From: Nitrosospira multiformis ATCC 25196
Lineage (GTDB): Bacteria; Pseudomonadota; Gammaproteobacteria; Burkholderiales; Nitrosomonadaceae
Direction: 5' to 3'
Assembly: GCF_000196355.1 (NCBI RefSeq)
Contig: NC_007614.1
Coordinates: 2,550,001 to 2,582,000 of the forward strand
Length of the DNA stretch: 32,000 nt
This document shows, in pieces, positions 2,228 to 18,839 of this stretch. A program made the position numbers and the translations under genes. The notes under the pieces were generated by a model, which was not told where the DNA came from, searched no databases, and was given only the letters and a program-made list of their open reading frames with translations. Each line of letters starts with the position of its first letter. The stretch's first letter is position 1.

Positions 2228-2431
2228 TTAAGCAGACTGAATATTTGATGCTTGCTTGCCCTTCGGACCCTGGGTAACCTCAAACGTTACTTTTTGACCT
2301 TCTTTGAGAGTTTTAAATCCGGACATATTGATTGCGGAGAAGTGCGCGAATAAATCCTCGCTTCCATCATCGGGTGTAATGAAGCCAAAACCCTTTGAAT
2401 CATTGAACCATTTTACTGTACCAGTTGCCAT
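2228..2431 (-). CDS. Cold-shock domain protein (CspA family; CspD-like by synteny)
   Basis: 67 aa, [34 protein letters not shown], carrying RNP1 (KGFGFI) and RNP2 (LFAHF) motifs. AGGAAG Shine-Dalgarno upstream. It is divergent from clpS-clpA, as cspD is in E. coli. Confidence 0.9.
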
Positions 2432-2711
2432 TATTGCTTCCTATAAATAAAACCGGGCCGGAAACCCGAACACTGTTTGAGTTTCAAGACCGCAAAACGG
2501 CTGTAACCGGTGCTGCAGAGAACTTGAAGCCAAACGCCAAGAGCTGTTTTACGCAAATCCATTGTTCAAGTCAAGTAGTCCAGCCCGTTATTTGACAGAA
2601 ATGCAGCAGAAAATTTTCTAAAAGGTACTTGAATATTTCAGCGCAATCATCAAATATAAAGATTGGAAGTGGTTATATTTCGGTTTTAATTAAAGGCAAG
2701 AATACAGGATC

Positions 2712-3020
2712 ATGGCTGCAAGAAATCATGGTGAGGTTGTACTTGAGGCTAAAAAGAGTAAACTCAAGCCGCCGCCAATGTTCAAGGTTATTTTGCTGAA
2801 TGATGACTTCACTCCGATGGATTTCGTGGTGACTGTATTACAGACTTTTTTTTCCATGAACCGAGAACAGGCGACACAAATCATGCTCAAAGTCCATATG
2901 GACGGAGCTGGAGTATGTGGAGTTTATCCCAATGATGTGGCTTCCACAAAAGTCGAACAGGTGGTTGCATTTGCAAGGCAGCATCAGCATCCGCTACAGT
3001 GCGTGATGGAGGAGAACTGA
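2712..3020 (+). CDS. clpS: ATP-dependent Clp protease adaptor ClpS
   Basis: 102 aa with the ClpS core [27 protein letters not shown]...[19 protein letters not shown]. The stop lies 1 nt before the clpA ATG. Confidence 0.95.
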
Positions 3021-3021
3021 A

Positions 3022-5280
3022 ATGATTGCTCAAGAATTAGAGGTAAGTCTGCATATGGCATTCGTGGAATCGCGTCAGAAGCGCCACGAGTTCATTACGG
3101 TCGAGCATCTGTTACTGGCCCTGCTCGATAATCCGACTGCCGCAGAGGTATTGCGCGCCTGCTCGGTTGATATGGACGATCTACGCCGGCTGCTGACTGA
3201 GCATGTCACCGAAAACACGCCGACTGTGGGAGGAAGTGGAGAGGTAGATACGCAGCCTACTCTTGGTTTTCAGCGCGTTATCCAGCGTGCGATTCTGCAT
3301 GTGCAGTCCTCCGGGAAAAAAGAGGTTACGGGTGCAAACGTACTGGTAGCAATATTTGGCGAAAAGGATTCGCACGCAGTTTATTTTCTTCATCAAAAGG
3401 GGGTAACCCGGCTCGATGTCGTGAACTATATTTCTCACGGCATCAGCAAAGTTCCGCAGGGAACCAACGCCAAAACCGAAAGCGAAGGGGATACCGAGCA
3501 GGAAATGAATGCAGGGGGCGCGCTGGAAAGTTATGCGGTCAATCTCAACGCCCAAGCACTGGCAGGCAAGATCGATCCGTTGATCGGACGGGAGCGCGAG
3601 CTGGAGCGCCTGATACAGACGCTGTGTCGCCGGCGCAAGAACAACCCGTTATTGGTGGGGGAAGCAGGAGTAGGCAAAACAGCTATTGCTGAAGGTCTGG
3701 CACGGCGAATCATCGAGAACGACGTCCCCGAGATCCTTGCACATCATCAGGTTTATGCCCTGGATATGGGAGCGCTGCTGGCGGGTACCAAATACCGGGG
3801 TGATTTCGAGCAACGCCTGAAGGCCGTACTCAAACAGTTGCTCGAGAGCTCGAATGCCATACTATTCATCGACGAAATTCACACCCTGATCGGGGCTGGC
3901 GCAGCTTCCGGAGGCACGCTGGATGCCTCCAATCTATTGAAACCGATACTGAATACCGGACAGCTGAAATGCATTGGCGCCACGACTTACAGCGAATATC
4001 GCGGAATCTTCGAAAAGGATCATGCGCTTTCACGGCGCTTCCAGAAGATCGATGTGCTCGAACCGAGCGTGGATGAAACGGTTTCCATACTGCGTGGCTT
4101 GAAAGCGCGTTATGAGGCCCATCATGGTGTCAAATATACCGCTACCGCGCTTACGACCGCCGCCGAGTTGTCGGCACGCTTTATCAACGACCGGCACTTG
4201 CCTGACAAGGCAATCGATGTGATCGATGAAGCCGGCGCAGCACAGCGTGTTTTACCCAAATCGAAGCAGCGCAAGGTAATCAGCAGGCATGAGATAGAGG
4301 TCATCATTGCCAAGATTGCGCGTATTCCGGCGCAGAATATTTCCAGTGACGATCGCAACACGTTGAAGACGCTTGATCGTGACCTGAAAGCGGTTGTGTT
4401 CGGTCAGGACAAGGCCATCAACGCGCTGACAGCCTCGATCAAGATGGCGAGAAGTGGTCTCGGGAATCCACAAAAGCCGGTTGGCTCTTTCCTTTTTTCC
4501 GGCCCGACCGGAGTCGGCAAAACCGAGGTTGCACGGCAGCTGGCCTATGCGCTTGGTATTCACCTGCACCGTTTCGACATGTCTGAATATATGGAACGGC
4601 ACGCTGTTTCGCGTTTGATCGGCGCGCCGCCCGGGTATGTCGGATTTGATCAGGGTGGTTTGCTCACCGAAGCCATTATCAAGCAACCCTATTCCGTGCT
4701 GCTGCTGGACGAAATTGAAAAGGCGCATCCCGATATTTTCAATATCCTGCTGCAAGTGATGGATCACGGCACATTGACGGACAATAACGGCCGCAAGGCG
4801 GATTTCCGTAATGTCGTCATCATCATGACGACCAATGCCGGAGCGGAAGCGTTGAGCAAGGCTACCATGGGCTTCACCAAGGCCGCGCAGGCAGGGGATG
4901 AGATGGCCGATATCAAGCGGATGTTCACGCCTGAGTTCCGCAATCGGCTGGATGCGATCATTTCCTTTGCGCCGCTAGAGAGAGAAGTGATTCTGCGCGT
5001 AGTGGATAAATTCCTGATGCAGCTTGAAGCCCAGTTGCAGGAAAAGAAAGTGGATGCGATATTCACCGACGCACTGAGAGAGTATCTTGCCAATAATGGT
5101 GTGGATCCTCTCATGGGCGCACGACCGATGGCGCGTCTCATTCAGGACACCATACGCAGCGCTCTGGCGGATGAATTACTGTTCGGACGTCTGGCCAATG
5201 GCGGCAGAGTGACAGTGGATATCGATACCGATAACAAGGTGAAGCTTCAGTTTGAGGAAGAGGCGGCGACAGCGATATAA
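3022..5280 (+). CDS. clpA: ATP-dependent Clp protease ATP-binding subunit ClpA
   Basis: 752 aa with an N-terminal Clp_N repeat region and two AAA+ modules. Walker A motifs are GEAGVGKT and GPTGVGKT; Walker B motifs are ILFIDEIH and [18 protein letters not shown] Shine-Dalgarno lies inside the end of clpS. Confidence 0.95.
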
Positions 5281-5306
5281 CTCGGCTTTCAGGGTAGAAA
5301 ACAAGG

Positions 5307-5345
5307 AAGGCGCGAATTTCCGCGCCTTTTTTGTTTTTGTCTTTT
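5307..5345 (+). terminator. Rho-independent terminator of clpS-clpA
   Basis: Stem AAGGCGCG / CGCGCCTT with loop AATTTC, followed by TTTTGTTTTTGTCTTTTTT. It sits 27 nt after the clpA stop. Confidence 0.8.
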
Positions 5346-5472
5346 TTACTTTGCCTCGGATGCTGTTCCGATTATTCCCCGCACGCTGATCTCGCCGGAT
5401 TACCGCTGCCGGGCGTCCACTCTAGCCTCTATGGACTCCCTACGAACTCCTAATACCTCGTGAGTAAAGCGG

Positions 5473-5691
5473 TTATTTGCCGGACTCGTATTTGAAAGAC
5501 AGGTTTACCCTCGCACGATAAGCCACCACCTTGCCGTCTTCAACCACCAGATCCAGCTTCACTATTTCAGCGACGCGTAAGTCTCGCAATGTCTTTGATG
5601 CTGTTTCCACGGCATTCTTGGCGGCGTCTTCCCAGGAAGTCGTGCTGGTTCCGATTATCTCCGTTATTTTGTAAACACTATCTCCTGCCAT
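5473..5691 (-). CDS. Dodecin-family flavin-binding protein
   Basis: 72 aa, VYKITEIIGTSTTSWEDAAKNAVETASKTLRDLRVAEIVKLDLVVEDGKVVAYRARVNLSF. This matches the bacterial dodecin pattern (VYK..E..G.S..S.EDA...A...A.KTLR.L...EV). Size is typical for the family. Confidence 0.8.
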   Translation of the reverse strand: MAGDSVYKITEIIGTSTTSWEDAAKNAVETASKTLRDLRVAEIVKLDLVVEDGKVVAYRARVNLSFKYESGK

Positions 5692-6091
5692 GACATTTCT
5701 CCTCGAACGGTGAGCAACGAAAACGGGGCACTGGCAGCCCGCACCTCTACTGATGTGATTTCAGTTTAGGTCAATTTTTGCTGATTGCAAGCTGCCGAGC
5801 GTTTAAGTTGCGCATCCTCCCCGGTTCTTGGGAAGAATGCGGATTTCGAGAACGATGGAGGGGAAATGGCATGGCCTCTAATTCAATCCTCAATTCTTCG
5901 ACAAGCCTGCGCCCGTTCGACCCTGGGCAAGCCTGCCGTGAACTGCGCTGTGATCACGCTTTCGATCCTTCTTCAATTCAGAATCAGGGAGTGGAGAAGA
6001 AGGGCTCATGGTGTAAAACCGAAGCAAGAAATCCTTGAAACGCTCGGGCAAAAGGTGTTCCGCGAGTCCCGCGTAACCCAGAACGCCTCTA

Positions 6092-8662
6092 TCAGCCCGC
6101 CACCACCCGCTTGGTAATGTATCCGAGCGCTTCATCCACCTGATCGATGAGAATAAGGCACAATTCTCCCTCTTTCAGATTGTCAAACGCGGCATCAATG
6201 GCTCCGAACTCTCCGTAGATTTCCTTGACGTTCCGGGTGCGTTTCGCCTTTTCCAGGCCCTGCCGCAGCAGGCTCAGTACTTCCCCATCCGCACGGCCCC
6301 GCTGGCACTGATCCTGATAAAGCACCACTTCATCAAAAGCATCGCCCAATATTTCCGTCTGCCGCCGAATATCCTCGTCGCGTCGATCGCCAGCGCCGCT
6401 GATAACCACGGAGCGACGTTTCGCCGGAATCTTGTCGATCGCACTTACAAGTGCGCGAATCGCATCGACATTATGCCCATAGTCAGCAATAAGTGTAGCG
6501 CCCCGATGAGTGAAGAAATTGAAACGGCCGGGGGCAGTTTGCATGTCGCTGACAAAATTCGCGAGACCGCCGCGAATGATCTGCCAGTCAAGACCCACTG
6601 CCCAGCCCGCCGCTATGGCCGCCATCGCATTTTCAATCTGGAATGCGATGGCACCATTCTGTGTCACGGGAATCCCTGCAAACGGAAGGCGATATTCGAA
6701 ATTGCCTTCCGCAGCAACGATCGCATCGTCCTCGACATAAACGACACGTTTACGTTGGGCGCGATGCTTTGCGATCACGGGATTATCCGGATCACGCGCA
6801 AAAAAAGTGACCTTGCCGGGGCAATGAGCGGCCATGCCTGCGACAAATGGATCCGCTGCGTTCAGCACCGCCACACCCGTACCCGGCTTCACGTTCTGCA
6901 CGATGATGCGCTTGACGGCGGTGAGGTCTTCTACGGTATTGATGTAGGAAAGACCGAGGTGATCACCGACCCCGATGTTGGTAACCACTGCGACATCGCA
7001 ACGATCGAAAGCCAATCCTTCACGCAACAGGCCCCCTCTGGCAGTTTCAAGCACTGCCGCGTCCACATCCGGATGAAGAAGCACTTTTCTTGCACTCTTG
7101 GGACCGCTGCAATCGCCAGTGTCGATACGCTGCCCCTCAATATAGACACCATCCGTGCTCGTCATGCCGACACGCAAACCCTGGCAATCAAGAATATTGG
7201 CAATCATCCTGACAGTAGTCGTTTTGCCGTTGGTGCCTGTTACCGCCACTACCGGGATACGGGCATCATCGCCCTTCTTGAACATATTCGCAATGATCGC
7301 CTCTCCCACCGCACGCCCTTTGCCGAAAGAAGGTTGCAAATGCATGCGCAAACCTGGTGCTGCATTGATTTCGATAATAGCGCCTTGTCCCTCCAAAGGT
7401 CTGGCTACGCTTTGGCAGACAACATCTACTCCACAGATATCCAGGCCAATCATCTGCGCAGCTTCGACCATTCGCGCCGCGAACTCCGAATGAACTTCGT
7501 CGGTAACATCTGTCGCCGTTCCCCCGGTCGAAAGATTCGCATTATTTCTGAGAACTACCCGCGTACCCGAGGGCGGGACGGAGTCGGACGTCAAGCCCTG
7601 AGTTGCAAGGTGGGCAAGAGCGATTTCATCCAAATGAATCTTTGTAAGCGCGTTGGCATGTCCCTCACCGCGTCGCGGGTCACGGTTGATCTGCTCCACC
7701 AATTCTTCAACCGTGTGAATCCCGTCCCCTGCAACCTGGGGGGGCTCACGCCGTGCTGCGGCGATCAGCTTGTTGCCGACTACCAGCATGCGATAGTCGT
7801 GGCCGGGAATGTAGCGCTCGACCATTACTTTTCCGGTGACTTCAACTGCAACGGCATACGCTGCTTCCACCTGTTCGCGGCTCACGAGGTTCACGCGGAC
7901 TCCCCTTCCCTGATTGCCGTCCTGTGGCTTGACGACGACAGGGCTGCCGATTTCACAGGTCGCCACCCATGCATCTTCCGCACTTGTGACCGGCCTTCCG
8001 GGTGTGACAGGTACGCCCGCCGCGTCCAGCAAGAATCGGGTAAGCTCTTTGTCCTGCGCCACCGACTCGGCTACGAGGCTGGTGAGACAGGTTTCTGCAG
8101 CCTGAATACGCCGCTGTCTGCTACCCCAGCCGAATTGCACCATGCTGCCATCAGTCAGCCGGTGGAAGGGAATGCCGCGGGCAATCGCTGCCCGCACTAC
8201 TGAACCGGTGCTCGGCCCCAGGCGTATGTCTTCGGAGAGCTCACGCAGACGCTGCAGGGCATCCGCCAGATTGAAAGGAGTATCTTCTATAGCCGCGCTG
8301 CACAGGGCTTGTGCAAGATCAAAGGCGAGTCTGCCAACCGCCTCTTCGCTGTATTCCACGACGACCCGGTAGACGCCGGCTTCAAGGGTCGGGGCGATCT
8401 TGCCGAAAGCCACCGGACAACCCGCCTGTATTTCCAGTCCGAGTGCAGCGCGCTCGAGCACATGTGCAAGCATTTCCGCTTCAGGGCAAGAGGCGGCCCG
8501 AAGCAAATCGATTTCCGGAAATCGTGCGTACAGGCGATCCAGAAAACCCGACACGCCACCCGGCAGGGATTCAGGAGTGTCGCAGGAAACGACTGCCTCT
8601 ATGGCTGTCTGACGGCTCCACAAATTGGGCCCGCGCAAAGCGCGGAGACATGATACATGCAT
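6092..8662 (-). CDS. cphA: Cyanophycin synthetase, full-length (N domain + ATP-grasp G domain + complete Mur-ligase-like M domain)
   Basis: 856 aa. The N-terminus LRALRGPNLWS is typical of CphA. ATP-grasp core: VVVKPQDGNQGRGV...ERYIPGHDYRMLVVG. M domain has an intact P-loop VAVTGTNGKTTT (7217..7240), TNIGVGDHLG (6953..6982) and C-terminal lobe motifs PGRFN...DYGHN. Confidence 0.92.
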   Translation of the reverse strand: MHVSCLRALRGPNLWSRQTAIEAVVSCDTPESLPGGVSGFLDRLYARFPEIDLLRAASCPEAEMLAHVLERAALGLEIQAGCPVAFGKIAPTLEAGVYRVVVEYSEEAVGRLAFDLAQALCSAAIEDTPFNLADALQRLRELSEDIRLGPSTGSVVRAAIARGIPFHRLTDGSMVQFGWGSRQRRIQAAETCLTSLVAESVAQDKELTRFLLDAAGVPVTPGRPVTSAEDAWVATCEIGSPVVVKPQDGNQGRGVRVNLVSREQVEAAYAVAVEVTGKVMVERYIPGHDYRMLVVGNKLIAAARREPPQVAGDGIHTVEELVEQINRDPRRGEGHANALTKIHLDEIALAHLATQGLTSDSVPPSGTRVVLRNNANLSTGGTATDVTDEVHSEFAARMVEAAQMIGLDICGVDVVCQSVARPLEGQGAIIEINAAPGLRMHLQPSFGKGRAVGEAIIANMFKKGDDARIPVVAVTGTNGKTTTVRMIANILDCQGLRVGMTSTDGVYIEGQRIDTGDCSGPKSARKVLLHPDVDAAVLETARGGLLREGLAFDRCDVAVVTNIGVGDHLGLSYINTVEDLTAVKRIIVQNVKPGTGVAVLNAADPFVAGMAAHCPGKVTFFARDPDNPVIAKHRAQRKRVVYVEDDAIVAAEGNFEYRLPFAGIPVTQNGAIAFQIENAMAAIAAGWAVGLDWQIIRGGLANFVSDMQTAPGRFNFFTHRGATLIADYGHNVDAIRALVSAIDKIPAKRRSVVISGAGDRRDEDIRRQTEILGDAFDEVVLYQDQCQRGRADGEVLSLLRQGLEKAKRTRNVKEIYGEFGAIDAAFDNLKEGELCLILIDQVDEALGYITKRVVAG

Positions 8663-8710
8663 CGAAAGTTCTCCTAGCGTTTCTTATTCATGCGCCTTAG
8701 TGATATGTTT

Positions 8711-10951
8711 TTACACTCTGCTAAATGCATGGAAGCTTTCAATTCCCGCCCGTATGACGGCCGGTTCGATGCCGAGCGACCATGCCGCGGCTACTGCCGC
8801 AAGTATGTTTTCCACCTCCAAAGCCGCCTGCCCGTTACATGTAACCGGAACATCGTTCAATTTACTCAATGGCAGTTCACCGGGCCCGTTAACAAGTAAA
8901 ATTTCTCCGTTTCGAACTGTTACCGCCCGTTTGCCTTGAACGCCGTTTATACCGGCGGTACCGTGTAAACAATGCTCTTTTATTACCGGAAGATCGGAAT
9001 CCAGACTGAAGTAAATAATTTCCCCATTGCACAGTGCAGCCATTTCCACCAGCATCGGTTCCCTGGCATTGAGCACTGCCGCCCCTGCGGGCACGACTAC
9101 ATCCACTTGGGTACGCAACACGTCGAAGACCTGTTTAGGGGTTTCGATATATTTTCCATAATGACGGGTCAACTCCACATTGGTAATGATGCCGACATGG
9201 CAGCCGTCGTAGGCCAATCCCTCGCGGAGCATGCTGTCGCTGCCGTTTTCAAAAACCGCCGCCTCGATTGACCGGTTCATGAGGATGTTGCGCGCTGTCT
9301 TCCAGTTGGCCTGGTCGCCTTTTTTCACTTGTCTGCGGTCAAGATAGAAGCCGTCGCTGCATGCCAGACCCGCCTGCTTTCCGGAGAGCGCGAGCAGTTG
9401 GGCAATAAGATGAGCCAGCTCAGTCGTACCATAACTGCCGGTAATACCTACAATCGGAATGCGGCCGTCCTCGTGACTCGGAAAAAGGTGCTCGACGATC
9501 GCTTCGCCGACCGGCCGGGGAGTACCAATTGCGGGCTTGATGTGCATTAGCAAACCGGGTCCCGCATTGACTTCGACAATAGCACCACCCTGTTCTGCAA
9601 GCGGTCGCGCAATATCTGTGGCGACAAGATCGATGCCGGCAATATCCAATCCGACAACACGCGCCGCCAGCGATGCTGCCGCCGCCGTACTGGGATGCAC
9701 CTCGTCGGTAACATCGAAAGCATGGTTACCGTTACGCTGAATGATGACTTCCTGTCCCGCAAGCGGTATTGAATCCGTGGTGAAGCCTTGCCGCTGGAGT
9801 TCCATTATCGTTACCCCATCCACACGAACCGGATTCAGCGGATGCTCTTCACTTTCTCCCCGCCGGGGATCAGAGTTGATCTGCAGCTGGATCAGTTCGT
9901 TTACGGTGGAAATCCCATCGCCAGTAACCGAAACGGAATCCCCCCGGCTGGCGGCGACGAGGCGGCCCCCGACCACCAGCAGGCGGTGTTCCGTACCGGG
10001 AATATAACCCTCGACCAGGACACCGCTGCCCTCCTCCAGAGCTACCCTGTAAGCGGACTCGATTTCTTCACGCTTGCTCAACTCGATAAAAACGCCGCGT
10101 CCATGATTTCCATCACACGGTTTGATCACCACCGGCAGACCGATTTCCTGCGCCGCTTCCCATGCATCCTCAGCACTGTGAACGATGCGTCCCTCAGGGA
10201 TGGCGACACCGCACGATTGCAGCAACGCCTTGGTCAGATCCTTGTCGCGCGAGATGCTTTCTGCAATCGCGGGGGTGCGGTCCGTTTCCGCTGTCCAGAT
10301 GCGCTGGCTTCGGATGCCATAACCCAGCTGTACCAGATTGCCTTTGGCAAGAAGGCGAATTGCCGGAATGTTGCGCCTGGCGGCGGCTTCAACAATGCAG
10401 GCAGTGGATGGCCCGAGCCACAGCGAATCAACCATGCCGCGCAGACGCGCAACAGCGCCTCTCACATCGTAAGGCTCATCCCCCGGCGAATAATCCATTG
10501 CCGCAAGCAGCAATTCCCTTGCCGCTGCGAGAGCATTGCGCGCGACATCCTCATGCCAGGCGCTCACAGCCACCTTGTATACACCGCGCAGGGATGTTTC
10601 GCGCGCCCGGCCGAAGCCGCCGGGCATTCCGGCCAGATTTTGCAGTTCAAGCGTAACGTGCTCGAGGATATGACCGGTCCAGGTACCTTCCTTTAAACGG
10701 CGCAGAAATCCGCCCCGTTCTCCATAACTGCAGCGGTGCTCGATGAGCGAAGGAAGCCAGGAAGACAGGCATTCATAGAAACCGGGAATTGTGTCGGAGG
10801 GAAAATCTTCAAGTTCCCCGATATCGACTATGGCTTCAAGTACGGGACGAACACTCCAGATATTGGGTCCGTTGAGGTGGCGTATTTCAATAAACTTGAT
10901 ATCTCGATTTACCGCTATGTAGTCAGGTTTGATATCTGCGTAAGCCAGCAT
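8711..10951 (-). CDS. Cyanophycin synthetase paralogue (CphA'-type) with degenerate, C-terminally truncated M domain
   Basis: 746 aa, colinear with the downstream CphA through the N domain (IRHLNGPNIWS) and ATP-grasp domain (VVIKPCDGNHGRGV...EGYIPGTEHRLLVVG). The P-loop reads GITGSYGTTE, with no Lys (9419..9448). The DH motif reads TNVELTRHYG (9155..9184). The protein stops where CphA still has about 150 residues to go. The gap to cphA is 48 nt. Confidence 0.85.
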   Translation of the reverse strand: MLAYADIKPDYIAVNRDIKFIEIRHLNGPNIWSVRPVLEAIVDIGELEDFPSDTIPGFYECLSSWLPSLIEHRCSYGERGGFLRRLKEGTWTGHILEHVTLELQNLAGMPGGFGRARETSLRGVYKVAVSAWHEDVARNALAAARELLLAAMDYSPGDEPYDVRGAVARLRGMVDSLWLGPSTACIVEAAARRNIPAIRLLAKGNLVQLGYGIRSQRIWTAETDRTPAIAESISRDKDLTKALLQSCGVAIPEGRIVHSAEDAWEAAQEIGLPVVIKPCDGNHGRGVFIELSKREEIESAYRVALEEGSGVLVEGYIPGTEHRLLVVGGRLVAASRGDSVSVTGDGISTVNELIQLQINSDPRRGESEEHPLNPVRVDGVTIMELQRQGFTTDSIPLAGQEVIIQRNGNHAFDVTDEVHPSTAAAASLAARVVGLDIAGIDLVATDIARPLAEQGGAIVEVNAGPGLLMHIKPAIGTPRPVGEAIVEHLFPSHEDGRIPIVGITGSYGTTELAHLIAQLLALSGKQAGLACSDGFYLDRRQVKKGDQANWKTARNILMNRSIEAAVFENGSDSMLREGLAYDGCHVGIITNVELTRHYGKYIETPKQVFDVLRTQVDVVVPAGAAVLNAREPMLVEMAALCNGEIIYFSLDSDLPVIKEHCLHGTAGINGVQGKRAVTVRNGEILLVNGPGELPLSKLNDVPVTCNGQAALEVENILAAVAAAWSLGIEPAVIRAGIESFHAFSRV

Positions 10952-11344
10952 AAAGTGAGAGTCTCACAAGAAATAAGTTAAGTTGAACTAACGCGGCTGA
11001 CTACAATGGGTTTACAACCAGATAAATTAATATGAAAAGTAAATGCTTTTCTCACGAGAATTTCACTTTCAGTACGAAGTCCCCATCCGCAAGAAATCAA
11101 GCATGGATTATGCCAGCTAAAATAATCTTTGCAAAACAGTTGTTTGGAGCAGAAAAGCAGGCAATTCTGTCGCCATTTGCCGACAATCGGTTTCCCGGCG
11201 AAATTATGCCGTTGATATCACGGGGATGTTATATGTCTCCTGTCAGCGACAGGCTGCGCAGAGGAATACGGGAAGCAGGGAATACGAACGCTGCTCCCCC
11301 CACTGGCAGCGGCGGAAGCAGTACCTCGCCGCCGGGACTTTGAA

Positions 11345-11824
11345 TCACAGGAAGCGGTCGAGAAGCTTCCGGCTGTGATGATCGAGCGCCGTACGGTCGC
11401 GTATCAGGAAGTTGATGTTCTGGCTGTCGGTGATCAGCAAAGCGACTGGAGTCAGGCGGCGAATGTATTCTTCGCCCTTGAGAACGAATGATGTACTACC
11501 GCGGTCGGTTTCAACCCGCCAGGTGCAGGGGGTAGCAAAACTTGAAACTGCCTCGATGCGTTTGATTTCCGGCATGAACTCCCGGTTGGCAAGATCCGTT
11601 TCAACATGCTTGCGCGTCTCCTCGGGGAGGTCGCTCAATGCCTCGATCCATGCCAGCTCATGGCCATCCGCATCGACCAGCGAGATACCGCGGCCGGGAG
11701 CGGTAATGGGAAAAGCCCGCACCGGAACCACGCCCTCTCGCACTTCCCCGTTCGCCCCGGTAAATACCAGTCGCCCAAAGGCATTGCGGTGCAGGGAGTA
11801 GTATAAGGGCGTTTTTTCCGTCAT
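11345..11824 (-). CDS. DUF1854-family protein (cyanophycin-cluster-associated, function unknown)
   Basis: 159-aa ORF whose ATG overlaps the ABC transporter stop (ATGA at 11821..11824). From memory, its size and sequence style (GRLVFTGANGEVREGVVPVRAFPIT...FMPEIKRIEAV...W.VETDRG) match DUF1854, which is paired with this ABC type. This needs an HMM check. Confidence 0.65.
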   Translation of the reverse strand: MTEKTPLYYSLHRNAFGRLVFTGANGEVREGVVPVRAFPITAPGRGISLVDADGHELAWIEALSDLPEETRKHVETDLANREFMPEIKRIEAVSSFATPCTWRVETDRGSTSFVLKGEEYIRRLTPVALLITDSQNINFLIRDRTALDHHSRKLLDRFL

Positions 11825-14169
11825 TCCCGGCCACCTTCAGCCCTTGGCTCCGGCTCCGGGCTCAGCCTGCGCAGATCGTCCTCCGTGTCCACATTACGCA
11901 CTTGCGCCAGGTAAAGCCGGTAGTAATGCCCTTCCCGGGCCATGAGTTCATCATGATTGCCTATCTCGATAACGCTCCCACGGTCAAGCACGATAAGCCG
12001 ACTGGCGTCGCGCAAGGTGGAGAGCCTATGTGCAATCGCGATGGTAGTCCGGCCCCGCACCAGGTTTTCGAGCGCTTTCTGGATCTCTTTCTCGGTGGTC
12101 GTATCCACCGAGGATGTCGCTTCATCCAGGATCAGAATACGCGGATCGATGAGCAGTGCCCTTGCTATCGATATGCGCTGCCGCTCCCCGCCCGAGAGCG
12201 CCTGGCCCCGTTCACCAACCAGAGAGTCATAGCCGTGCGGCAGGCGGAGAATAAACTCATGCGCATGCGCGGCTCGCGCGGCGGCAACGATTTCCTCCTG
12301 CGTCGCGTTCGGTTTGCCGTAGGCAATATTCTCCGCAATGGTGCCGAAAAACAGAAAAGGTTCCTGAAGAACAAGTCCGATATGCTTGCGGTATTCCGCG
12401 ACCGGAAGCGCGCGTATATCCACGCCATCCAGCAGGATTGCGCCTTCCGTCACGTCGTAGAAACGGCAGATCAGATTGACGAGCGTACTCTTGCCTGAGC
12501 CGCTATGCCCTACCAGACCCACCATTTCACCTGGTTCGATAGTTATATTGATGCCATGCGTGACTGTGCGGGTACCGTAGCGGAACTCGACGTTTCGCAA
12601 CTCGATTCGCCCATCTACGACGGGCAGGTGCACGGGGTGGGCAGGCTCTGGAACGCTGGAAACGTGGTCGAGAATTTCGAAGATGCGTTTGGTGCCGGCA
12701 GCGGCCTTTTGTGTAAACGAGACGATGCGGCTCATCGAATCCAGTCGTACATAGAAACGGCTGATGTAGGTGAGAAAAGCCGTCAGCACTCCTACCGTAA
12801 TCTCATCTTTTGATACCTGCCAGATACCGAAAACCCAAACCACCAGCAAACCGACCTCGGTCAGCAGAACGACCGTTGGCGTGAACATCGACCAGACTTT
12901 GTTGACCCGGTCATTGACTTCCCGGTTGCGTTCATTGGCGGCGCGAAAGCGGATTGCTTCACGCTTCTCTTGGGCAAACGCCTTTACCACCCTCACCCCG
13001 GGGATGGTATCGGCAAGCACGCTGGTCAACTCAGCCCAAACGCGATCGACCTTTTCGAACCCGGTCCGCAACTTGTCGCGAACGATATGGATCAACCACG
13101 CAATGATCGGTAAGGGCGTCAGGGTCACCAGCGCAAGCCACGGCTCGATCGAAACCAGGATAATGGTCGTCATGCCGATCATCAGCACGTCGGTCGCGAA
13201 ATCGAGCAGATGAAGCGACAGGAAAATGTTGAGGCGATCTGTTTCCGACCCGATGCGCGCCATGAGATCGCCGGTACGCTTGCCGCCAAAATAGGCGTGC
13301 GAGAGTTTAAGCAGATGCTCAAAAGTGGCTGTGCGCAAATCAGCGCCGATACGCTCGGAAACCAGGGCGAGCACGTAAGTGCGCGCCCATCCCAATCCCC
13401 AGGCCACAATCGCGGCTCCGAGCAGTCCGGTCAGATAAAACTCAACCAGTTCAACGTCAATCGGTTTACCGTTCTGGTAGGGAATCAGTACGTTGTCCAT
13501 CAGGGGCATGGTCAAGTACGGAGGTATCATCGCCGCTCCCGTGCTGCCGAGCGTCAAAAGAAAACCGGCAAAAAGCCTCCACTTGTAGGGCCTTGCGAAA
13601 CGCCACAAACGTAACAGAGTCCAGGTGGACGGAGGCGCGTGCACTTGCTTGCGGCACGCTTCGCACTCCTCCTGCCCCGGAGCCAGCGGGACATCCAGTA
13701 CCCTGTGGCACTTGGGACAGAGAACCTGTACAGGTAAAGGACGGAACTCCCCTGTCAAGTGATTATGAAGCTGCTCCCGGAAATTATCGATGAGCCGGGT
13801 GGCCGCAGCATCCTTCCCCAACGTGTAGCGCCAGCGTGCGAGCAGCGCGTTCTCATCGAAGAGTTCAAGGCTGCCGACGCCTGCGTGATCACTGCGCACA
13901 AGCGTCAGTCCAGGCCGGTAACTCCACTCCTGTAACGTTGCCTCCGCCCCCGCCCCTGCCTCCGCCTGGACGAGCAGACGCTTATTGGTGACGACTACTA
14001 GTCCGGGATCAAAATGCAGTCGGCCATTGAGGTCAGTTTCGAGCCATGCCGCCACCTTTTCTTCCCTGGAAAGCCGGGATTCAACAGCCGCAATCCAGGT
14101 AGCCGGCAGAGCAGGCGCTCCTGACAGCATGTCATTGGGAAAAATCGGCGAAAGCCCGGATTCCGGCAT
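11821..14169 (-). CDS. ABC transporter, fused permease/ATPase (type I exporter half-transporter) with ~185-aa N-terminal cytoplasmic extension
   Basis: 782 aa. NBD motifs: Walker A GHSGSGKST, signature LSGGERQRISIARA, Walker B ILILDEATSSVD, H-loop IAHRLST. A six-helix ABC_membrane region precedes the NBD. The N-terminal extension has a PH-like LVVVTNKRLLVQ motif and CPKC-x14-CEAC. Confidence 0.9.
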   Translation of the reverse strand: MPESGLSPIFPNDMLSGAPALPATWIAAVESRLSREEKVAAWLETDLNGRLHFDPGLVVVTNKRLLVQAEAGAGAEATLQEWSYRPGLTLVRSDHAGVGSLELFDENALLARWRYTLGKDAAATRLIDNFREQLHNHLTGEFRPLPVQVLCPKCHRVLDVPLAPGQEECEACRKQVHAPPSTWTLLRLWRFARPYKWRLFAGFLLTLGSTGAAMIPPYLTMPLMDNVLIPYQNGKPIDVELVEFYLTGLLGAAIVAWGLGWARTYVLALVSERIGADLRTATFEHLLKLSHAYFGGKRTGDLMARIGSETDRLNIFLSLHLLDFATDVLMIGMTTIILVSIEPWLALVTLTPLPIIAWLIHIVRDKLRTGFEKVDRVWAELTSVLADTIPGVRVVKAFAQEKREAIRFRAANERNREVNDRVNKVWSMFTPTVVLLTEVGLLVVWVFGIWQVSKDEITVGVLTAFLTYISRFYVRLDSMSRIVSFTQKAAAGTKRIFEILDHVSSVPEPAHPVHLPVVDGRIELRNVEFRYGTRTVTHGINITIEPGEMVGLVGHSGSGKSTLVNLICRFYDVTEGAILLDGVDIRALPVAEYRKHIGLVLQEPFLFFGTIAENIAYGKPNATQEEIVAAARAAHAHEFILRLPHGYDSLVGERGQALSGGERQRISIARALLIDPRILILDEATSSVDTTTEKEIQKALENLVRGRTTIAIAHRLSTLRDASRLIVLDRGSVIEIGNHDELMAREGHYYRLYLAQVRNVDTEDDLRRLSPEPEPRAEGGRE

Positions 14170-14439
14170 TACTCTAATAGGGGAAAATCAATATCAGATA
14201 TTCAAAAATAGCGAATAGGAGTCCTCTGTTTCTTCGTCCGCCCCAGTTCGCGGCAGGCATCTTCGCCTCACCTCAAGGCTTCATCGTGCAAGAGCAATTC
14301 GGAGAGCGAGATTCACATGCCCACGAGCACGATGCCTATCTCCACCCGAAACCCGAGTATAGTCGGCTAGAGTATCAGATAATGCTCATTATGCCCTTAT
14401 CGGGGATACTGTGTCTCCGCATTTGCTTCCCCCGAATAT

Positions 14440-15315
14440 TCACCTCCGCCGTGCTCCGAGCACAGCACCCACGGTAACCGCCCCCAATCCCGCCAAAGTG
14501 AGCAGAGGCAGAGGTTCCCCCAGAACAGGCACAGCCGCCAATGCAGATATGACGGGCACGAATGCCATCAGCAAGGCGACCGTCTGCGACCCGAGGCGAC
14601 GCACAGCGAACGTATAGAGCAGCATCGCGATAAAGACGACCAGCACGCCCTGATACGCTGCCTGGAGGATGATTTCGCGGAGCGGTGCCAGTGCGAGATT
14701 GCTGGGCAGAAATAACAGCCAGACAGGCAGGTAAACTGCAGCGCTGCCCAGGGTGGTCGTTACAGTGGCAGCAAGCGGCGGCATCGGATAGCGTGCGAGC
14801 AGCAGCGTGAATATCGCCCACAATGAGGAGCCGCAAAGAAATAGCACATCACCGAGAATTTGCGTGGGAGATATATGTGTTCCGAGTGAGAGCGAGTCAG
14901 CGGCGGTCAGCAGGATACCGGCAAAAACAATAAGCAGCGCCAGCCGCCGTGCGCCGGTAAATTTTTCGCCGAACCACAGCCACGCAATGATCGCGGTCAG
15001 AAAAGGCAGCGTGCCAGGCAACAGCACGGAAGCATGAGCTGCCGGCGCCCAGCGGAAAGCAGCGTATACCACCGCAGCGTAACCGATACCGCCGAACAGC
15101 GAGAACAGGGCTATCACCTTGAGTGGAGGCAACAGGATGCGCGGCAAGAAAAAGACGGCGATCGAAGCGCCTACCCCGAATCGCAGTAGGGCAATGTCCC
15201 AGCTTGTCAACGTCCCCATTCCCCCATATCGGCTGACGAGAATGAAACCGGTCCAGATGCATATGGAAAAGAAGACCGCTATCCAGCCGCTCCAGGATTT
15301 GAGTGCTTCGCTCAT
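14440..15315 (-). CDS. DMT-superfamily (EamA-type) transporter
   Basis: 291 aa, about 10 predicted hydrophobic helices, with the Gly/Ala/Leu-rich composition typical of a duplicated EamA domain. It begins 111 nt downstream of the C-S lyase gene on the same strand. Confidence 0.8.
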   Translation of the reverse strand: MSEALKSWSGWIAVFFSICIWTGFILVSRYGGMGTLTSWDIALLRFGVGASIAVFFLPRILLPPLKVIALFSLFGGIGYAAVVYAAFRWAPAAHASVLLPGTLPFLTAIIAWLWFGEKFTGARRLALLIVFAGILLTAADSLSLGTHISPTQILGDVLFLCGSSLWAIFTLLLARYPMPPLAATVTTTLGSAAVYLPVWLLFLPSNLALAPLREIILQAAYQGVLVVFIAMLLYTFAVRRLGSQTVALLMAFVPVISALAAVPVLGEPLPLLTLAGLGAVTVGAVLGARRR

Positions 15316-15426: not shown

Positions 15427-16656
15427 TCAGGCGCTCCCCTGCTTTGCTTTTTTGTGCACAGCTTTTCTGATGCTTTCAAGGGCTGCTTCGATGGTGCTGC
15501 GGGGCGCACCGATGTTCATACGCATGAAACCGCTGCCTTCTGCGCCAAACAAAGTGCCGGGACTCATGCCGATACCCGCTTCGTGCACAAAAAAATGCCT
15601 GAGCTGGATATCCGTCATTCCCAGTGCGTTCATCAATTCGTGGCAATCAAACCAGAGCAGATACGTGCCTTCGGGCTCGATGAGGTGGATTTCCGGAAGG
15701 CGAGTCGCCAGATATTCTGAGACAAAATCACGGGTTTCCTGTAGATAAACCAGCAATTCATCCAGCCAGACCTCCCCTTCCCGATAGGCTGCCTCGAAAG
15801 CAGCAATGCTGAAAGGATTGGATGCGCTGACATGCAGGATATCGAACGTCCGCGCAAGCTCCTCCCGATGCCTGGAATCCGGCACGACAAGTGCGGAAAG
15901 ATTCAATCCGGGAATATTGAATGTCTTGCTGGGAGCGACAGCTGTTATGACATTCGCCTTGCTTCCAGCCCATGTTTTCGCCAGCCGGGAGAGTATATGA
16001 TGCCTGGCTTCGGAATAAACCAGATCAGCGTGGATTTCGTCGGAAAATACCACGAGATCGTGTTTATCCGCTATCCGCAGGATGCGCTCGAGCTCTCCCC
16101 TGCTCCACACCCTGCCGACGGGATTATGCGGCGAGCATAGAAGCAGAAGACGTGCGCCTTGCGCGCATTGCTCGAGATGATCGTAATCGATCTCATAATG
16201 ACCATTCCGCAACCGCAAGGGATTCTGTACGAGTTGCCTGCCTGTAGCGGTGACAGCAGAAAAAAAGGGGAAATATACCGGCGGCTGTACGATAACCGAT
16301 GCTCCGGGGGGGGCAAAGGTCATGATGACGGCATGCAACGACGGAACAACGCCGGGACACATCATAATCCAGTCCCGCTCGATCTCCCAGCCATGACGGC
16401 GCCGCAGCCAATCCATCAGCGACTCATACAAACTGTCGGGAAAGACAGTGTACCCGTACACCGGATGAGCGGCACGTCGGGAAAGCGCCTGGGTGACCGC
16501 GACTGGAGCGGCAAAATCCATATCCGCGACCCATAGGGGAATCACTCCCGCTGCGCCGAACATGCTTTGGCGCCCATCGTATTTCAGGCTGGCTGTCCCG
16601 GTCCGGTCGATTTCCTTATCAAAATCCTGGTCCGCAATGGGAGCACTTCTGTTCAA
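15427..16656 (-). CDS. PLP-dependent C-S lyase, PatB/MalY family (OvoB-like, putative ovothiol sulfoxide lyase)
   Basis: 409 aa. The N-terminal FDKEIDRTGTASLKYD motif and overall aminotransferase class I/II architecture are typical of MalY/PatB. The only possible start upstream of that motif is TTG at 16656, which overlaps the ovoA stop (TTGA). GGAG lies 8 nt upstream. Confidence 0.8.
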   Translation of the reverse strand: MNRSAPIADQDFDKEIDRTGTASLKYDGRQSMFGAAGVIPLWVADMDFAAPVAVTQALSRRAAHPVYGYTVFPDSLYESLMDWLRRRHGWEIERDWIMMCPGVVPSLHAVIMTFAPPGASVIVQPPVYFPFFSAVTATGRQLVQNPLRLRNGHYEIDYDHLEQCAQGARLLLLCSPHNPVGRVWSRGELERILRIADKHDLVVFSDEIHADLVYSEARHHILSRLAKTWAGSKANVITAVAPSKTFNIPGLNLSALVVPDSRHREELARTFDILHVSASNPFSIAAFEAAYREGEVWLDELLVYLQETRDFVSEYLATRLPEIHLIEPEGTYLLWFDCHELMNALGMTDIQLRHFFVHEAGIGMSPGTLFGAEGSGFMRMNIGAPRSTIEAALESIRKAVHKKAKQGSA

Positions 16657-18839
16657 GCAGTTTTCTCCCAGATTGTTACTTCCGAGAGCGTGTGCTGGAA
16701 TTTACGGCGTGTTTCGCGAATGACAAATGGAACCTCCGTAGGCCCTTGAATGAGCCTGAAATGGGCACCCAGAATTTCTTTCAGGCCATCGAGCGTTCCG
16801 AAACTTTCACCATCCCGCTTGAATCCGCCGATCCAGGCTTCCCGCTTGGTATGTTCCTCCAGCCAGGTATAGGGAGAAGCAATCAGCAAAATACCGCCGG
16901 AATTGATGCGGGTATGTATGGATGTAAGCAGTTTGGCCGGATCATAAAGACGGTCTATGAGATTCGCCGCGAGGATCAGGTCGTAACCCGTATATATAGG
17001 TTTGAGGTTACAGGCGTCCCCTTGATAAAACGCCACCTTATGCCTGACCCCGTCCAGGCCCAGTCCAGCCAGCGTCCGCTCCCGGTAAAGGACCAGATCG
17101 CCTTCATCGGCCAGGGTATAGCGTAACACCCCTTGCGACGCCAGCTGCACTCCCTGTCCGATGAAACGGGCGGAGAAATCCACTCCTGTCACCTCATCGA
17201 AATGCCGCGCCAGTTCAAAAGCAGCTCGCCCCGACGCGCAACCCAGGTCGAGCGCCTTGTGTGCAGGCTTGTCTCCCATGGCGGCAATAGCGAGTTCCGC
17301 CAGCGCTTTCGGGAAATTTGGCACATCGAAATAAGTGTCTCCATAATGGAATTCAGCATATTCGGAGAGCAGCTTGTCGGTTTCGTAGTGCGAGCCATGC
17401 TGAATCGCCGGGGCAGTTCCGACGACGTAGCGAAAACCCGCGTGCTGAAAGAAATGGCGGCGAAAGGCGTAACGTGAGTTCTTCAAGGATTCATTGCCAC
17501 AGGAAATCCAGGAGCCTCCCTTGATGAGGTTGTGCCTGCCATCGAAGGTGGGTGTTGTGAAATCATCATAGTGGGGATGAACATCAAAGCCATCGAAAGG
17601 ATAGATGGGCGTTTCAGTCCATTGCCACACGTTTCCCACCACATCATAAAAATCACCCTGGGCAAATTCGTTGACAGGGTGGCTGGAGGCCCCATGGTCG
17701 AGATGAATATTGGCCATGGCCGGTGCAGCAGCCGGAACCTCGGATAATCCCGCTACTTCATAGAGCCGGTACCATTCGTCTTCGGTCGGGAGGCGGTAGG
17801 GCTGGCCACTTACGGCCGCCTTCCAGTTACAGAAAGCCTTGGCTTCGTGATAATTCACCTCCACAGGCCAATCCCAAGGCATGGAAATTTCCTTGGTCAT
17901 CAGGCGCAACTCCCACTCCCCGCCTCGCCGGATCCAGAAGGTGGGATGCTTCGCGCCAGCATGCTTCAGCCAGGCGCGTCCCTCCTCTTCCCAGTAACTT
18001 TCGGTTTCATAGCCGTCTGCCTGAACAAACTCCAGGAATTCCTGATTACTCACCAGGTATTTGCCGGCTTCGAAGGCTGCAACGTCCGCAATGTGAGTAC
18101 CGTATTCGTTATCCCATCCATAGAAAGGATCGTCTTTTTTCTTGCCAAGCTGCACCGTGCCTTCCGGTACTTTCACCAGCTGATTGTCGGGCGCCGGTCC
18201 GGATTTACGGCAGGGTTCCCATGCAGGATGGGGAGCAACATGTTCCAGCGCATGCTGCCGGATAAGGACGGACGAAGTTTCGAGATGAATGCGCTCGTGT
18301 TCGATACCCATCATGATCGTCCACCAGGGGCTGTCCCATTCAATGGGCAAGGTCAGAGGCGTTTCACGGATGAGTCGATCGACAGTTTCCCGCATCCTTC
18401 TGCGATAGGCTCGCACCTCTTCGACAGAAGGCCAATCGTAATGCGTCGTATCCAGATCGTCCCAACTCATTTCATCGACACCCACTGCGAACATCGATTC
18501 CATTTTTGGGTTGATGCGGTCAGTGATCAGACCCGCGAGCAGGAGTTTATTGGTAAAGAAGGTTGCGGTATGGCCGAGATAGAATATGAGCGGGTGACGC
18601 AATGAAATGGGCTTTTTGAAGTAGGCCGCGTCTCCTCGCAACGTTTCGAAGAGTTGCTCGTAACGGTCCAGCGTGGAATGAAAGTATTCGCGTATTTCCT
18701 CACGCTTTGCCGCAGCATTACCTCCGGCAAGAACAGGAGTTCGGGAAAAGAGTTGTTTGGGCATTACACGCAACTTGGGGTTTTCGGAAGCAGATTGAAC
18801 AGCTGTGGTTGTTTTCTTTGCATTCAAATTCATGTTCAC
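16653..18839 (-). CDS. ovoA: 5-histidylcysteine sulfoxide synthase / mercaptohistidine N-methyltransferase OvoA
   Basis: 728 aa with the three-domain OvoA layout. The DinB-like N-domain has LIFYLGHTATFF and the iron motif HERIHLE (Hx3HxE). The central FGE-sulfatase-like domain has NVWQWT and GGSW. The C-terminal SAM methyltransferase has ALDLGCASGRAAFELA. Confidence 0.9.
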   Translation of the reverse strand: MNMNLNAKKTTTAVQSASENPKLRVMPKQLFSRTPVLAGGNAAAKREEIREYFHSTLDRYEQLFETLRGDAAYFKKPISLRHPLIFYLGHTATFFTNKLLLAGLITDRINPKMESMFAVGVDEMSWDDLDTTHYDWPSVEEVRAYRRRMRETVDRLIRETPLTLPIEWDSPWWTIMMGIEHERIHLETSSVLIRQHALEHVAPHPAWEPCRKSGPAPDNQLVKVPEGTVQLGKKKDDPFYGWDNEYGTHIADVAAFEAGKYLVSNQEFLEFVQADGYETESYWEEEGRAWLKHAGAKHPTFWIRRGGEWELRLMTKEISMPWDWPVEVNYHEAKAFCNWKAAVSGQPYRLPTEDEWYRLYEVAGLSEVPAAAPAMANIHLDHGASSHPVNEFAQGDFYDVVGNVWQWTETPIYPFDGFDVHPHYDDFTTPTFDGRHNLIKGGSWISCGNESLKNSRYAFRRHFFQHAGFRYVVGTAPAIQHGSHYETDKLLSEYAEFHYGDTYFDVPNFPKALAELAIAAMGDKPAHKALDLGCASGRAAFELARHFDEVTGVDFSARFIGQGVQLASQGVLRYTLADEGDLVLYRERTLAGLGLDGVRHKVAFYQGDACNLKPIYTGYDLILAANLIDRLYDPAKLLTSIHTRINSGGILLIASPYTWLEEHTKREAWIGGFKRDGESFGTLDGLKEILGAHFRLIQGPTEVPFVIRETRRKFQHTLSEVTIWEKTA

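Follow-up and report, generated by a model that had tools for sequence, protein, structure and literature searches.

The cphA' gene of Nitrosospira multiformis, a truncated partner of cyanophycin synthetase with a degenerate arginine-adding domain and an altered aspartate site

Two genes of the cyanophycin synthetase type lie in tandem in the chromosome of Nitrosospira multiformis ATCC 25196, and the upstream one, cphA', lacks its 3′ portion. What does such a shortened synthetase do beside a complete one? The locus was analyzed within a stretch of 32,000 nucleotides (contig NC_007614.1, positions 2,550,001 to 2,582,000), termed the window, whose own numbering is used throughout. In many Betaproteobacteria an ordinary cyanophycin synthetase gene is accompanied by a partner already named "cphA'", and the gene studied here is one of these. 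The CphA' family has borne its name since the 2000s. The pair is organized as follows.

8711..10951, minus strand: cphA' open reading frame, 746 amino acids plus stop, domain order N-G-Mcore, without the Mlid lobe
8663..8710, minus strand: cphA'-cphA spacer, 48 nt, with an AGGAGA ribosome-binding site at 8670..8675
6092..8662, minus strand: cphA open reading frame, 856 amino acids, G and M sites canonical, N-domain peptidase motif absent (SCPEAEMLAHVLER), Gln at the position of SuCphA1 (Su) H267

The two proteins are 42% identical over 725 aligned columns. CphA' displays the three-domain architecture of the CphA1 type (N, G, M), with Pfam matches to PF18921, ATP-grasp families and Mur_ligase_M, and its alignment with PDB 7LG5 covers residues 19-741. 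It exceeds the cut-off of the NCBIfam subfamily model NF010623 (1066 bits) and, at 745 bits, is below the 850-bit cut-off of the NCBIfam equivalog TIGR02068, against which the adjacent CphA scores 973.5 bits. The spacer, which runs from the cphA' stop to the cphA ATG, carries stop codons in every frame, in agreement with the original prediction that no reading frame continues past the stop at 8711. No terminator-like site was found in these 48 nt. In a promoter and terminator scan of 5300..14600, sites were no more numerous than in shuffled sequence, and Rfam and tRNA scans of the window gave no matches.

The Mur-ligase (M) domain of CphA' had been predicted to be vestigial with respect to arginine addition, and this is borne out.

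8714..9466, minus strand: M' core, residues 496-746, Mur-ligase central domain kept, active site degenerate, Mlid absent
9419..9442, minus strand: degenerate M P-loop TGSYGTTE, in which T509 replaces the lysine
9155..9184, minus strand: TNVELTRHYG, in which R596-H597 replaces the catalytic Asp-His pair

Compared with SuCphA1, K499 is T509, D585/H586 is R596/H597, N497 is Y507 and F692 is L711. The corresponding CphA motifs are TGTNGKTT (7217..7240) and TNIGVGDHLG (6953..6982). The predicted positions of both, and of the CphA' counterpart of the second, are correct; the CphA' P-loop is present as predicted but ends at 9442, since the interval first given, 9419..9448, spans GITGSYGTTE. CphA' residue 740 pairs with CphA residue 703, and the protein ends at the equivalent of about CphA residue 709, close to the 708 proposed earlier, without PGRFN...DYGHN and the remainder of the 146-amino-acid C-terminal lobe. 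A Pfam match to Mur_ligase_C (PF02875) is found in CphA only. Each of three changes, K499A, D585A/H586A and removal of Mlid, is crippling to the CphA1 enzymes with solved structures (PMC9427784, PMC9262961). Because the site residues are replaced, Mlid is absent and the equivalent CphA1 mutants are crippled, the M domain of the window CphA' is almost certainly unable to add arginine.

The truncation is real and not an assembly or frameshift artefact: a 97%-identical protein of 746 amino acids, with the same stop position, is present on several Nitrosospira multiformis contigs, and 73 of 80 CphA' orthologues are truncated as well. Loss of the P-loop lysine, which was also part of the original prediction, stands for the window protein but does not extend to the family. 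GK[ST] is kept in 48 of the 80 orthologues, including the nearest Nitrosospira relatives, and the lysine is lost in 32; by sequence comparison the loss is a trait of the window protein's own lineage. The DH pair is missing from most CphA' orthologues, and the M-site residues are variable.

The 80 loci are all betaproteobacterial except for one metagenome bin labelled Rhizobium. CphA' is monophyletic, a betaproteobacterial clade of its own in which some members are still complete and have an intact M domain: the CphA' proteins of Cupriavidus, Ralstonia, Bordetella and Achromobacter are full length and retain TGTNGKT, DHLG and Mlid. Because this clade is separate and still contains such members, the truncation arose independently of that in CphA2, as had been proposed. 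The domains have diverged unequally. Over the same 66 species, mean pairwise identity is 67.0% for G' versus 70.4% for the G domain of CphA, 64.7% for N' versus 59.7% for N, and 48.3% for Mcore' versus 68.3% for Mcore. Conservation of G' thus matches that of the canonical G, N' surpasses N, and M' diverges faster.

The ATP-grasp (G) domain presents a different picture, one of a retained ATP core and an altered aspartate site.

9467..10426, minus strand: G' ATP-grasp domain, residues 176-495
10094..10114, minus strand: G phosphate loop DGNHGRG, with H283 at the position of Su H267; His in 79/79 CphA', Gln in 73/73 partner CphA
9941..9943, minus strand: G337, at the position of Su R323, which binds the aspartate β-carboxylate; Gly in 74/79 CphA', Arg in 73/73 CphA
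9713..9739, minus strand: shortened G-omega large loop QRNGNHAFD, with five residues deleted, so that LSTGG and with it the S396 position are lost; 79/79 CphA'
9548..9550, minus strand: L468, at the position of Su R458, which binds the aspartate α-carboxylate; Leu in 73/79 CphA', Arg in 73/73 CphA

Residues were scored in 79 CphA' and 73 CphA sequences at positions tested experimentally in SuCphA1 and TeCphA1. Those that serve ATP, Mg and acyl-phosphate binding (K220, K261, H267, R309, D431 and E450, Su numbering) are kept in all 79 CphA' proteins. The G domain had been considered intact; the two motifs quoted for it are present, but R323 is replaced by Gly, R458 by Leu, and the loop deletion takes S396 with it. 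The large loop, whose role has been described (PMC9427784; PMC10273328), reads IQRNGN-----HAFDVTD in CphA' versus RNNANLSTGGTATDVTD. N394 is possibly kept as N409 (77/79), the alignment near N394 and the deletion being ambiguous by a few residues, and distant CphA' members have Asp at the N394 position. R336, which adjoins the G337 position, is conserved. Three of the four aspartate-contacting elements are altered alike across the family, distant members included. The window protein carries the whole CphA' G-domain signature, a definition derived here rather than taken from the literature: His at Su-267, a shortened large loop, Gly at 323 and a residue other than Arg at 458. G' could in principle still bind aspartate by a different mode.

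The N domain of CphA' is well preserved.

10427..10897, minus strand: N' domain, residues 19-175; PF18921, 116.8 bits versus 43.7 bits in CphA
10658..10732, minus strand: Cx19HxxEH zinc-peptidase (primer-generating) motif CSYGERGGFLRRLKEGTWTGHILEH; C74, H94, E97 and H98, all four in 79/79 CphA'

These four residues of the motif (defined in PMC9262961) are the equivalents of SuCphA1 C59/H79/E82/H83. CphA displays the mirror pattern: its N motif lacks the Cys and the second His, and all G and M residues are found in 73/73 sequences. One candidate explanation, that Gln in place of the essential H267 renders the G domain of CphA inactive, was rejected: among full-length, long-loop representatives at 50% identity, most of which also have the N motif, like stand-alone enzymes, Gln occurs as often as His (30 and 24).

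Upstream of cphA' are two genes that belong to the same locus.

11345..11824, minus strand: DUF1854 protein, cyanophycin metabolism-associated, 159 amino acids; NF052234, 235 bits; its first 4 nt are shared with the end of the ABC gene
11821..14169, minus strand: ABC transporter, cyanophycin metabolism-associated, 782 amino acids, exporter-type with fused transmembrane and ATPase domains; NF052233, 1394 bits

Both scores exceed the curated cut-offs. The order ABC, DUF1854, cphA', cphA is that of a conserved four-gene module. In all 73 betaproteobacterial loci with sufficient downstream DNA, cphA is directly downstream of cphA', with a median spacer of 40 nt and an overlap or a gap of at most 10 nt in 18 of them; the ABC and DUF1854 genes adjoin the pair in nearly all loci that reach far enough upstream. 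No other flanking family is common to more than six of the 80 loci. At distant loci, with a CphA' identity of about 50% or lower, the pair is found beside a fused ABC-DUF1854 gene in three of four examined; at the fourth, L083, the pair is present and the upstream gene was not identified. At this same locus the HxxEH site is on the CphA-type protein, so the separation of the N site from the partner is not universal, and primer supply is not the whole reason for keeping CphA'. According to transposon data of Price et al., the ABC, DUF1854, cphA' and cphA genes are cofit, with matching mutant phenotypes, in Acidovorax sp. 3H11 and C. basilensis, and an exported amino-acid polymer was proposed.

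Taken as an evenly poised proposition, CphA' still functions and works as an obligate partner to the CphA encoded next to it, within a conserved module that includes the ABC exporter and the DUF1854 protein and whose product would be exported. CphA, with canonical sites for adding aspartate (G) and arginine (M) and no N peptidase site, would be primer-dependent by analogy to characterized CphA1 enzymes without that site. CphA' would contribute the zinc endopeptidase-like N site (Cx19HxxEH) and cut the polymer into primers. Its ATP-grasp domain is predicted still to bind ATP and Mg and to activate the C-terminal carboxylate of the polymer; the G' acceptor pocket would no longer fit free L-aspartate, and the chain is probably joined to a different nucleophile. 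The dead M' domain in Nitrosospira is probably retained as a scaffold for the interface of the G/M dimer; a CphA/CphA' hetero-oligomer is the likeliest setting. Counting against the proposal, a review (PMC8560796) describes expression of the Ralstonia eutropha H16 homologues as having yielded no detectable cyanophycin, so that a product other than cyanophycin is possible.

A narrower hypothesis, offered tentatively, is that CphA and CphA' constitute a two-subunit synthetase whose product is an exported relative of cyanophycin with a different chemistry, with G' installing or attaching something other than aspartate. Both carboxylate-binding arginines are gone from the acceptor pocket and distant members have Asp where N394 would be, so the acceptor could be uncharged or positively charged. 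It may be another type of backbone residue, a group that caps the chain, or an anchor used for export through the ABC and DUF1854 proteins. If true, the two-subunit reading would make CphA' a third catalytic type of cyanophycin synthetase beside CphA1 and CphA2.

Several other explanations have to be weighed. The original prediction raised the possibility of a CphA2-like β-Asp-Arg dipeptide polymerase. CphA' and CphA2 (GcCphA2 7TA5, StCphA2 8FXH) do resemble each other in a truncated, inactive Mur-ligase domain joined to an ATP-grasp domain with an intact ATP site; in CphA' the Mg and acyl-phosphate residues are intact as well, and loss of R323 with a larger pocket might be expected if the β-carboxylate already bears arginine. 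However, CphA2 has the full large loop, in which N393 and S395 are essential (N393A and S395A are inactive; PMC10273328), and this segment is shortened in 79/79 CphA', with the Ser position deleted. As CphA1 and CphA2 both need the loop that CphA' lacks, a polymerase of the CphA2 kind is unlikely on this ground. In addition, R458 is Leu in CphA', although a dipeptide still presents an α-carboxylate; CphA2 is without the N-domain peptidase motif (PMC9262961), and CphA' has all four residues in 79/79 sequences. The StCphA2 M remnant is about 150 amino acids, whereas CphA' keeps the whole Mcore of about 250. CphA2 is cyanobacterial and evolved from CphA1 (PMC10273328), whereas the betaproteobacterial CphA' clade has full-length members with an intact M domain. 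The comparison with CphA2 rests on the residues given in PMC10273328 and PMC9262961. CphA' is only 20-22% identical to CphA2 and far nearer to CphA1, with sequence E-values of about 1e-60 versus 2e-154; Foldseek with the CphA' model gives about 1e-23 versus 1e-47, a ranking that repeats the sequence result. Finally, no cyanophycinase gene is present within the window and cyanophycinase is reported absent from Betaproteobacteria (PMC5178258), so there is no obvious source of dipeptide. On all of these points, a dipeptide polymerase is improbable.

That CphA' is an obligate non-catalytic partner, a pseudoenzyme that scaffolds or regulates CphA in a hetero-oligomer, was the other possibility raised at the outset. 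The dead M site, the missing canonical aspartate site of G', the tightly conserved gene order and the cofitness are all compatible with it. The partner half of the claim gains from adjacency in 73/73 loci and from the published cofitness; the non-catalytic half fares poorly, as 79 genomes show no variation in the four residues of the N site or in the tested G' residues for ATP, Mg and acyl-phosphate, the unused M site drifts, and the divergence of G' does not exceed that of the active G domain in CphA. A pseudoenzyme is therefore considered unlikely. A similarly low standing is given to the reading in which G' still adds aspartate through altered binding, with CphA' as a second aspartate-adding, primer-making subunit and CphA adding arginine. 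The intact catalytic core of G', the N394 equivalent that may persist as N409 and the conserved R336 beside G337 speak for it, but three of four aspartate-contacting elements are changed family-wide, even in distant members, and the aspartate site of CphA is complete, which leaves no reason for two types of G domain in strict pairing. Decay of a duplicate gene, or an artefact, deserves hardly any credence: in its favour are the ongoing degeneration of the M domain and a loss of the P-loop lysine that is recent in the lineage of the window protein, but the open reading frame is intact, with its stop matched in the 97%-identical public protein, 80 intact orthologues are under purifying selection, and cphA' mutant phenotypes are published for two organisms. 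This last reading is effectively refuted.

The proposed functional partnership of CphA and CphA' bears on how these genes are interpreted elsewhere. The pair is very widespread, occurring in nitrifiers, Accumulibacter, Zoogloea, Cupriavidus, Bordetella, Acidovorax, Polynucleobacter and others, and wastewater nitrogen-recovery studies score cphA/cphA' genes as cyanophycin-storage capacity (PMC10687191). The only functional data point otherwise: the pair may not make classical cyanophycin, cyanophycinase is reported absent from these bacteria, and the genes act as a unit with an exporter. CphA' should not be annotated as an equivalent of CphA1 or CphA2. The residue patterns make a twenty-year-old annotation puzzle experimentally specific in terms of point mutants and substrates.

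CphA1 (SuCphA1 7LG5/7LGJ, TeCphA1 7WAC/7WAE) is among the closest known systems. CphA' has the same order of N, ATP-grasp and Mur-ligase domains, 36-38% identity (phmmer E = 2e-154), and an identical N-domain Cx19HxxEH site and G-domain ATP, Mg and acyl-phosphate residues. It differs in R323 to G, a large loop five residues shorter, R458 to L, the degenerate M active site, the absent Mlid and the score under the TIGR02068 cut-off, and in that it is always accompanied by a second, canonical synthetase. The AlphaFold model of CphA' (44 sequences) has a mean pLDDT of 62 and a pTM of 0.49 and is poor in the G domain; Mcore alone is confident, with a pLDDT of 80-94 across most of the M' core.

Literature searches for a heteromeric synthetase or a 'CphA3' gave nothing relevant. 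An engineered SuCphA1 heterodimer, N-G+M+/N+G-M-, is active (Sharon et al., 2022; PMC9262961) and may be regarded as a laboratory analogue of the proposed CphA/CphA' pair: the primer-generating N site is all that one protomer contributes, and the polymerizing sites are on the other. The heterodimer is artificial, with G knocked out, whereas the natural G' is remodelled and conserved.

The cphA/cphA' pairs of the literature, in Ralstonia eutropha H16 (Adames et al.) and other Betaproteobacteria, belong to the same four-gene module in the same order. They are orthologous to the window pair, and are represented among the 80 loci by L006, L014 and L016 (Cupriavidus) and L056-L058 (Acidovorax). Unlike the full-length CphA' of Cupriavidus, Ralstonia, Bordetella and Achromobacter, that of Nitrosospira is truncated, as are most, and has lost the P-loop lysine as well.

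On the minus strand of the window, four genes lie in a row:

11821..14169, minus strand, ABC transporter of 782 aa (NCBIfam NF052233, 'cyanophycin metabolism-associated ABC transporter')
11345..11824, minus strand, DUF1854 protein of 159 aa (NCBIfam NF052234, 'cyanophycin metabolism-associated DUF1854 family protein')
8711..10951, minus strand, cphA', encoding 746 aa
6092..8662, minus strand, cphA, encoding 856 aa

Both NCBIfam scores are well over cut-off, and the start of the DUF1854 gene overlaps the end of the ABC transporter gene by 4 nt. The gap between cphA' and cphA is 48 nt, and an AGGAGA ribosome-binding site is present 7 nt 5' of the cphA ATG. The ABC exporter displays an N-terminal extension of ~190 aa ahead of the transmembrane domain; there is no Pfam match in the extension, which carries paired Cys-x-x-Cys motifs (CPKC...CEAC) that are zinc-ribbon-like in appearance. 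In distant relatives, DUF1854 is fused onto the C-terminus of the cyanophycin-associated transporter. No cyanophycinase gene was found within the window, and Betaproteobacteria with cphA/cphA' are stated to have none (PMC5178258).

The original prediction, of a truncated CphA' with a dead Mur-ligase (M) domain next to a canonical CphA, is largely correct, and the motifs it quoted are all found at, or no more than 6 bases from, the positions assigned to them. The two proteins are 42% identical in pairwise alignment. CphA' ends at about CphA residue 709, and a Pfam Mur_ligase_C match is found in CphA only. The truncation is genuine, as a public 746-aa Nitrosospira multiformis protein, 97% identical to CphA', is of equal length, and the same truncation, with loss of the C-terminal Mur-ligase lobe (Mlid), is seen in 73 of the 80 orthologues, which come from different species. 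The near-identity of the public protein places the window in N. multiformis or a very close relative. As had been noted, no frame continues past the CphA' stop; there are stops in all frames of the 48-nt gap.

The window CphA' has Y507, T509, S532, R596 and L711 at the SuCphA1 M-site positions N497, K499, T522, D585 and F692, and these positions are variable across the family (79 sequences). CphA1 variants K499A, D585A/H586A and an Mlid deletion are all severely impaired (PMC9262961, PMC9427784). Arginine addition by the window CphA' is thus very unlikely, and the reading of a dead M domain is sound. The loss of the P-loop Lys holds for the window protein and does not extend to the family: TGSYGKTT is found in the nearest orthologues, from Nitrosospira and Nitrosovibrio, and 48/80 keep Gly-Lys-Ser/Thr.

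Neighbour joining recovers CphA' (80/80) and CphA (74/74) as two separate monophyletic groups. Of the CphA' proteins, seven are full-length, with TGTNGKT, DHLG and the lobe of ~150 aa; they come from Cupriavidus, Ralstonia, Bordetella and Achromobacter. These seven fall within the CphA' clade, with one truncated protein (locus L030) among them, which dates the loss of Mlid to after the duplication and makes more than one loss probable. As originally suggested, the truncation is thus independent of that in cyanobacterial CphA2. The full-length proteins (loci L006, L013-L017 and L027; 870-886 aa) have an intact M P-loop, DHLG and Mlid, so that the pairs in these four genera have four potentially active ligase domains, compared with three in Nitrosospira.

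The ATP-grasp (G) domain had been described as intact. This does not hold, as there is a 5-residue loop deletion and Arg-323 and Arg-458 are replaced by Gly and Leu. The CphA' segment IIQRNGN-----HAFDVTDEVH aligns to CphA NNANLSTGGTATDVTDEVH. In CphA1, residues 389-399 form the 'large loop of G-omega', in which N394 holds the aspartate substrate, and the substrate fits into a narrow space next to S396; the N394A variant has impaired activity and the S396W variant has none (PMC9427784). Tested CphA1 positions were read in 79 CphA' and 73 CphA sequences from 80 genome loci, against a SuCphA1 sequence rebuilt from a PDB alignment, with which 25/25 published residue numbers agree. All 79 CphA' sequences keep the N-site residues C59/H79/E82/H83 and the ATP, Mg and acyl-phosphate residues K220, K261, H267, R309, D431 and E450. 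At the aspartate-binding positions, R323 is Gly in 74/79, R458 is Leu in 73/79, and the S396 segment is deleted in all 79. The CphA family displays the complement: all aspartate-binding and M-site residues are present in 73/73, and the N-site Cys and second His are missing in 73/73. All 73 CphA sequences have Gln at position 267 (Q251 in the window CphA). Gln occupies this 'essential' H267 position in every CphA partner, including the second gene of four distant loci (L081-L084), and His is found in every CphA'. Gln-267 is also common among stand-alone canonical homologues, and His/Gln at 267 tracks the type of acceptor site.

Mean pairwise identities were compared over the same 66 species, with the M domain of CphA' as internal control. 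The N domain is 64.7% identical in CphA' and 59.7% in CphA, the G domain 67.0% and 70.4%, and Mcore 48.3% and 68.3%. The M site of CphA' drifts while its N site and ATP-grasp core do not, which speaks for N' and G' still being used in catalysis, with a G' acceptor pocket that is non-canonical yet conserved. The same pattern speaks against the proposal of a non-catalytic partner of CphA. A CphA2-like dipeptide polymerase is also disfavoured. CphA2 retains the large loop, with N393 and S395 essential, and its authors expect just 'a subtle, cryptic change' there (PMC10273328), whereas in CphA' the loop is shortened and the Ser position deleted. CphA2 is without the N-domain motif (PMC9262961), which CphA' keeps. 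CphA' is also nearer CphA1 than CphA2 by phmmer (E of 2e-154 versus about 1e-60) and by Foldseek with a low-confidence query model (about 1e-47 versus about 1e-23).

The CphA' signature, as read from sequence, extends outside Betaproteobacteria. The short loop is present in 59 of the best 150 representatives (50% identity), almost all of them with His-267 and almost none with Arg-458. In 4/4 distant loci a short-loop gene is followed by a long-loop gene with Gln-267 and R323/R458; a fused ABC-DUF1854 gene lies alongside in 3/4. The distant short-loop members have Asp at position 394. In L083 (genes 2363..4966 and 5311..7920), it is the long-loop CphA-type protein that carries the HxxEH N site, and the short-loop protein does not. 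The N-site split between partners is thus not universal, whereas the G-site split is.

These features suggest a division of labor. As its primer-generating N site is missing, CphA should behave as TmCphA1, which is primer-dependent (PMC9262961). CphA' keeps this site and could plausibly supply primers as a partner subunit, since an engineered SuCphA1 heterodimer, N-G+M+/N+G-M-, is active (PMC9262961). In CphA2 the head-to-head dimer interface is formed by the G and M domains (PMC10273328), so the Mcore of CphA' may have been retained for such an interface after loss of its chemistry. G' presumably still activates the polymer C-terminus. With both carboxylate-holding arginines lost and Asp at 394 in distant members, its acceptor is probably other than free aspartate, and the product may be exported.

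The gene family and operon are already known. The tandem pair appears in the literature as cphA/cphA'. Published transposon data show matching mutant phenotypes for the four genes, with results for cphA' and cphA from Acidovorax sp. 3H11 and C. basilensis, and Price et al. propose an amino-acid polymer that is exported. A cluster of 'two copies of cphA plus ABC transporter, no cphB' was found in Accumulibacter, Nitrosomonas and others in a wastewater study (PMC10687191). According to a review, the R. eutropha H16 homologues were expressed with no detectable cyanophycin (PMC8560796). A residue-level description of the complementary CphA/CphA' active-site pattern was not found in the literature searched.

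Elsewhere in the window, the region of about 800 nt from the clpA stop to the cphA stop (5281..6091) lacks both a convincing open reading frame and any Rfam match; directly after clpA, at 5300..5335, there is a strong 15-bp hairpin followed by a T-run. Pfam gives no match at E <= 1e-5 for the open reading frames at 21637..22899 (plus strand, 420 aa) and 19145..19843 (minus strand, 232 aa). A 728-aa protein at 16653..18839 (minus strand) combines DinB_2, FGE-sulfatase and SAM-methyltransferase domains, as in the ovothiol 5-histidylcysteine sulfoxide synthase OvoA. Next in order are a class I/II aminotransferase-fold protein at 15427..16656 (minus strand), which may be the OvoB lyase, and, at 14440..15315 (minus strand), an EamA transporter. 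A sucrose cluster, at 25147..27627, 27515..29779 and 29688..30602 (all minus strand), comprises a sucrose synthase, a sucrose-phosphate synthase/phosphatase fusion and a PfkB-family sugar kinase.
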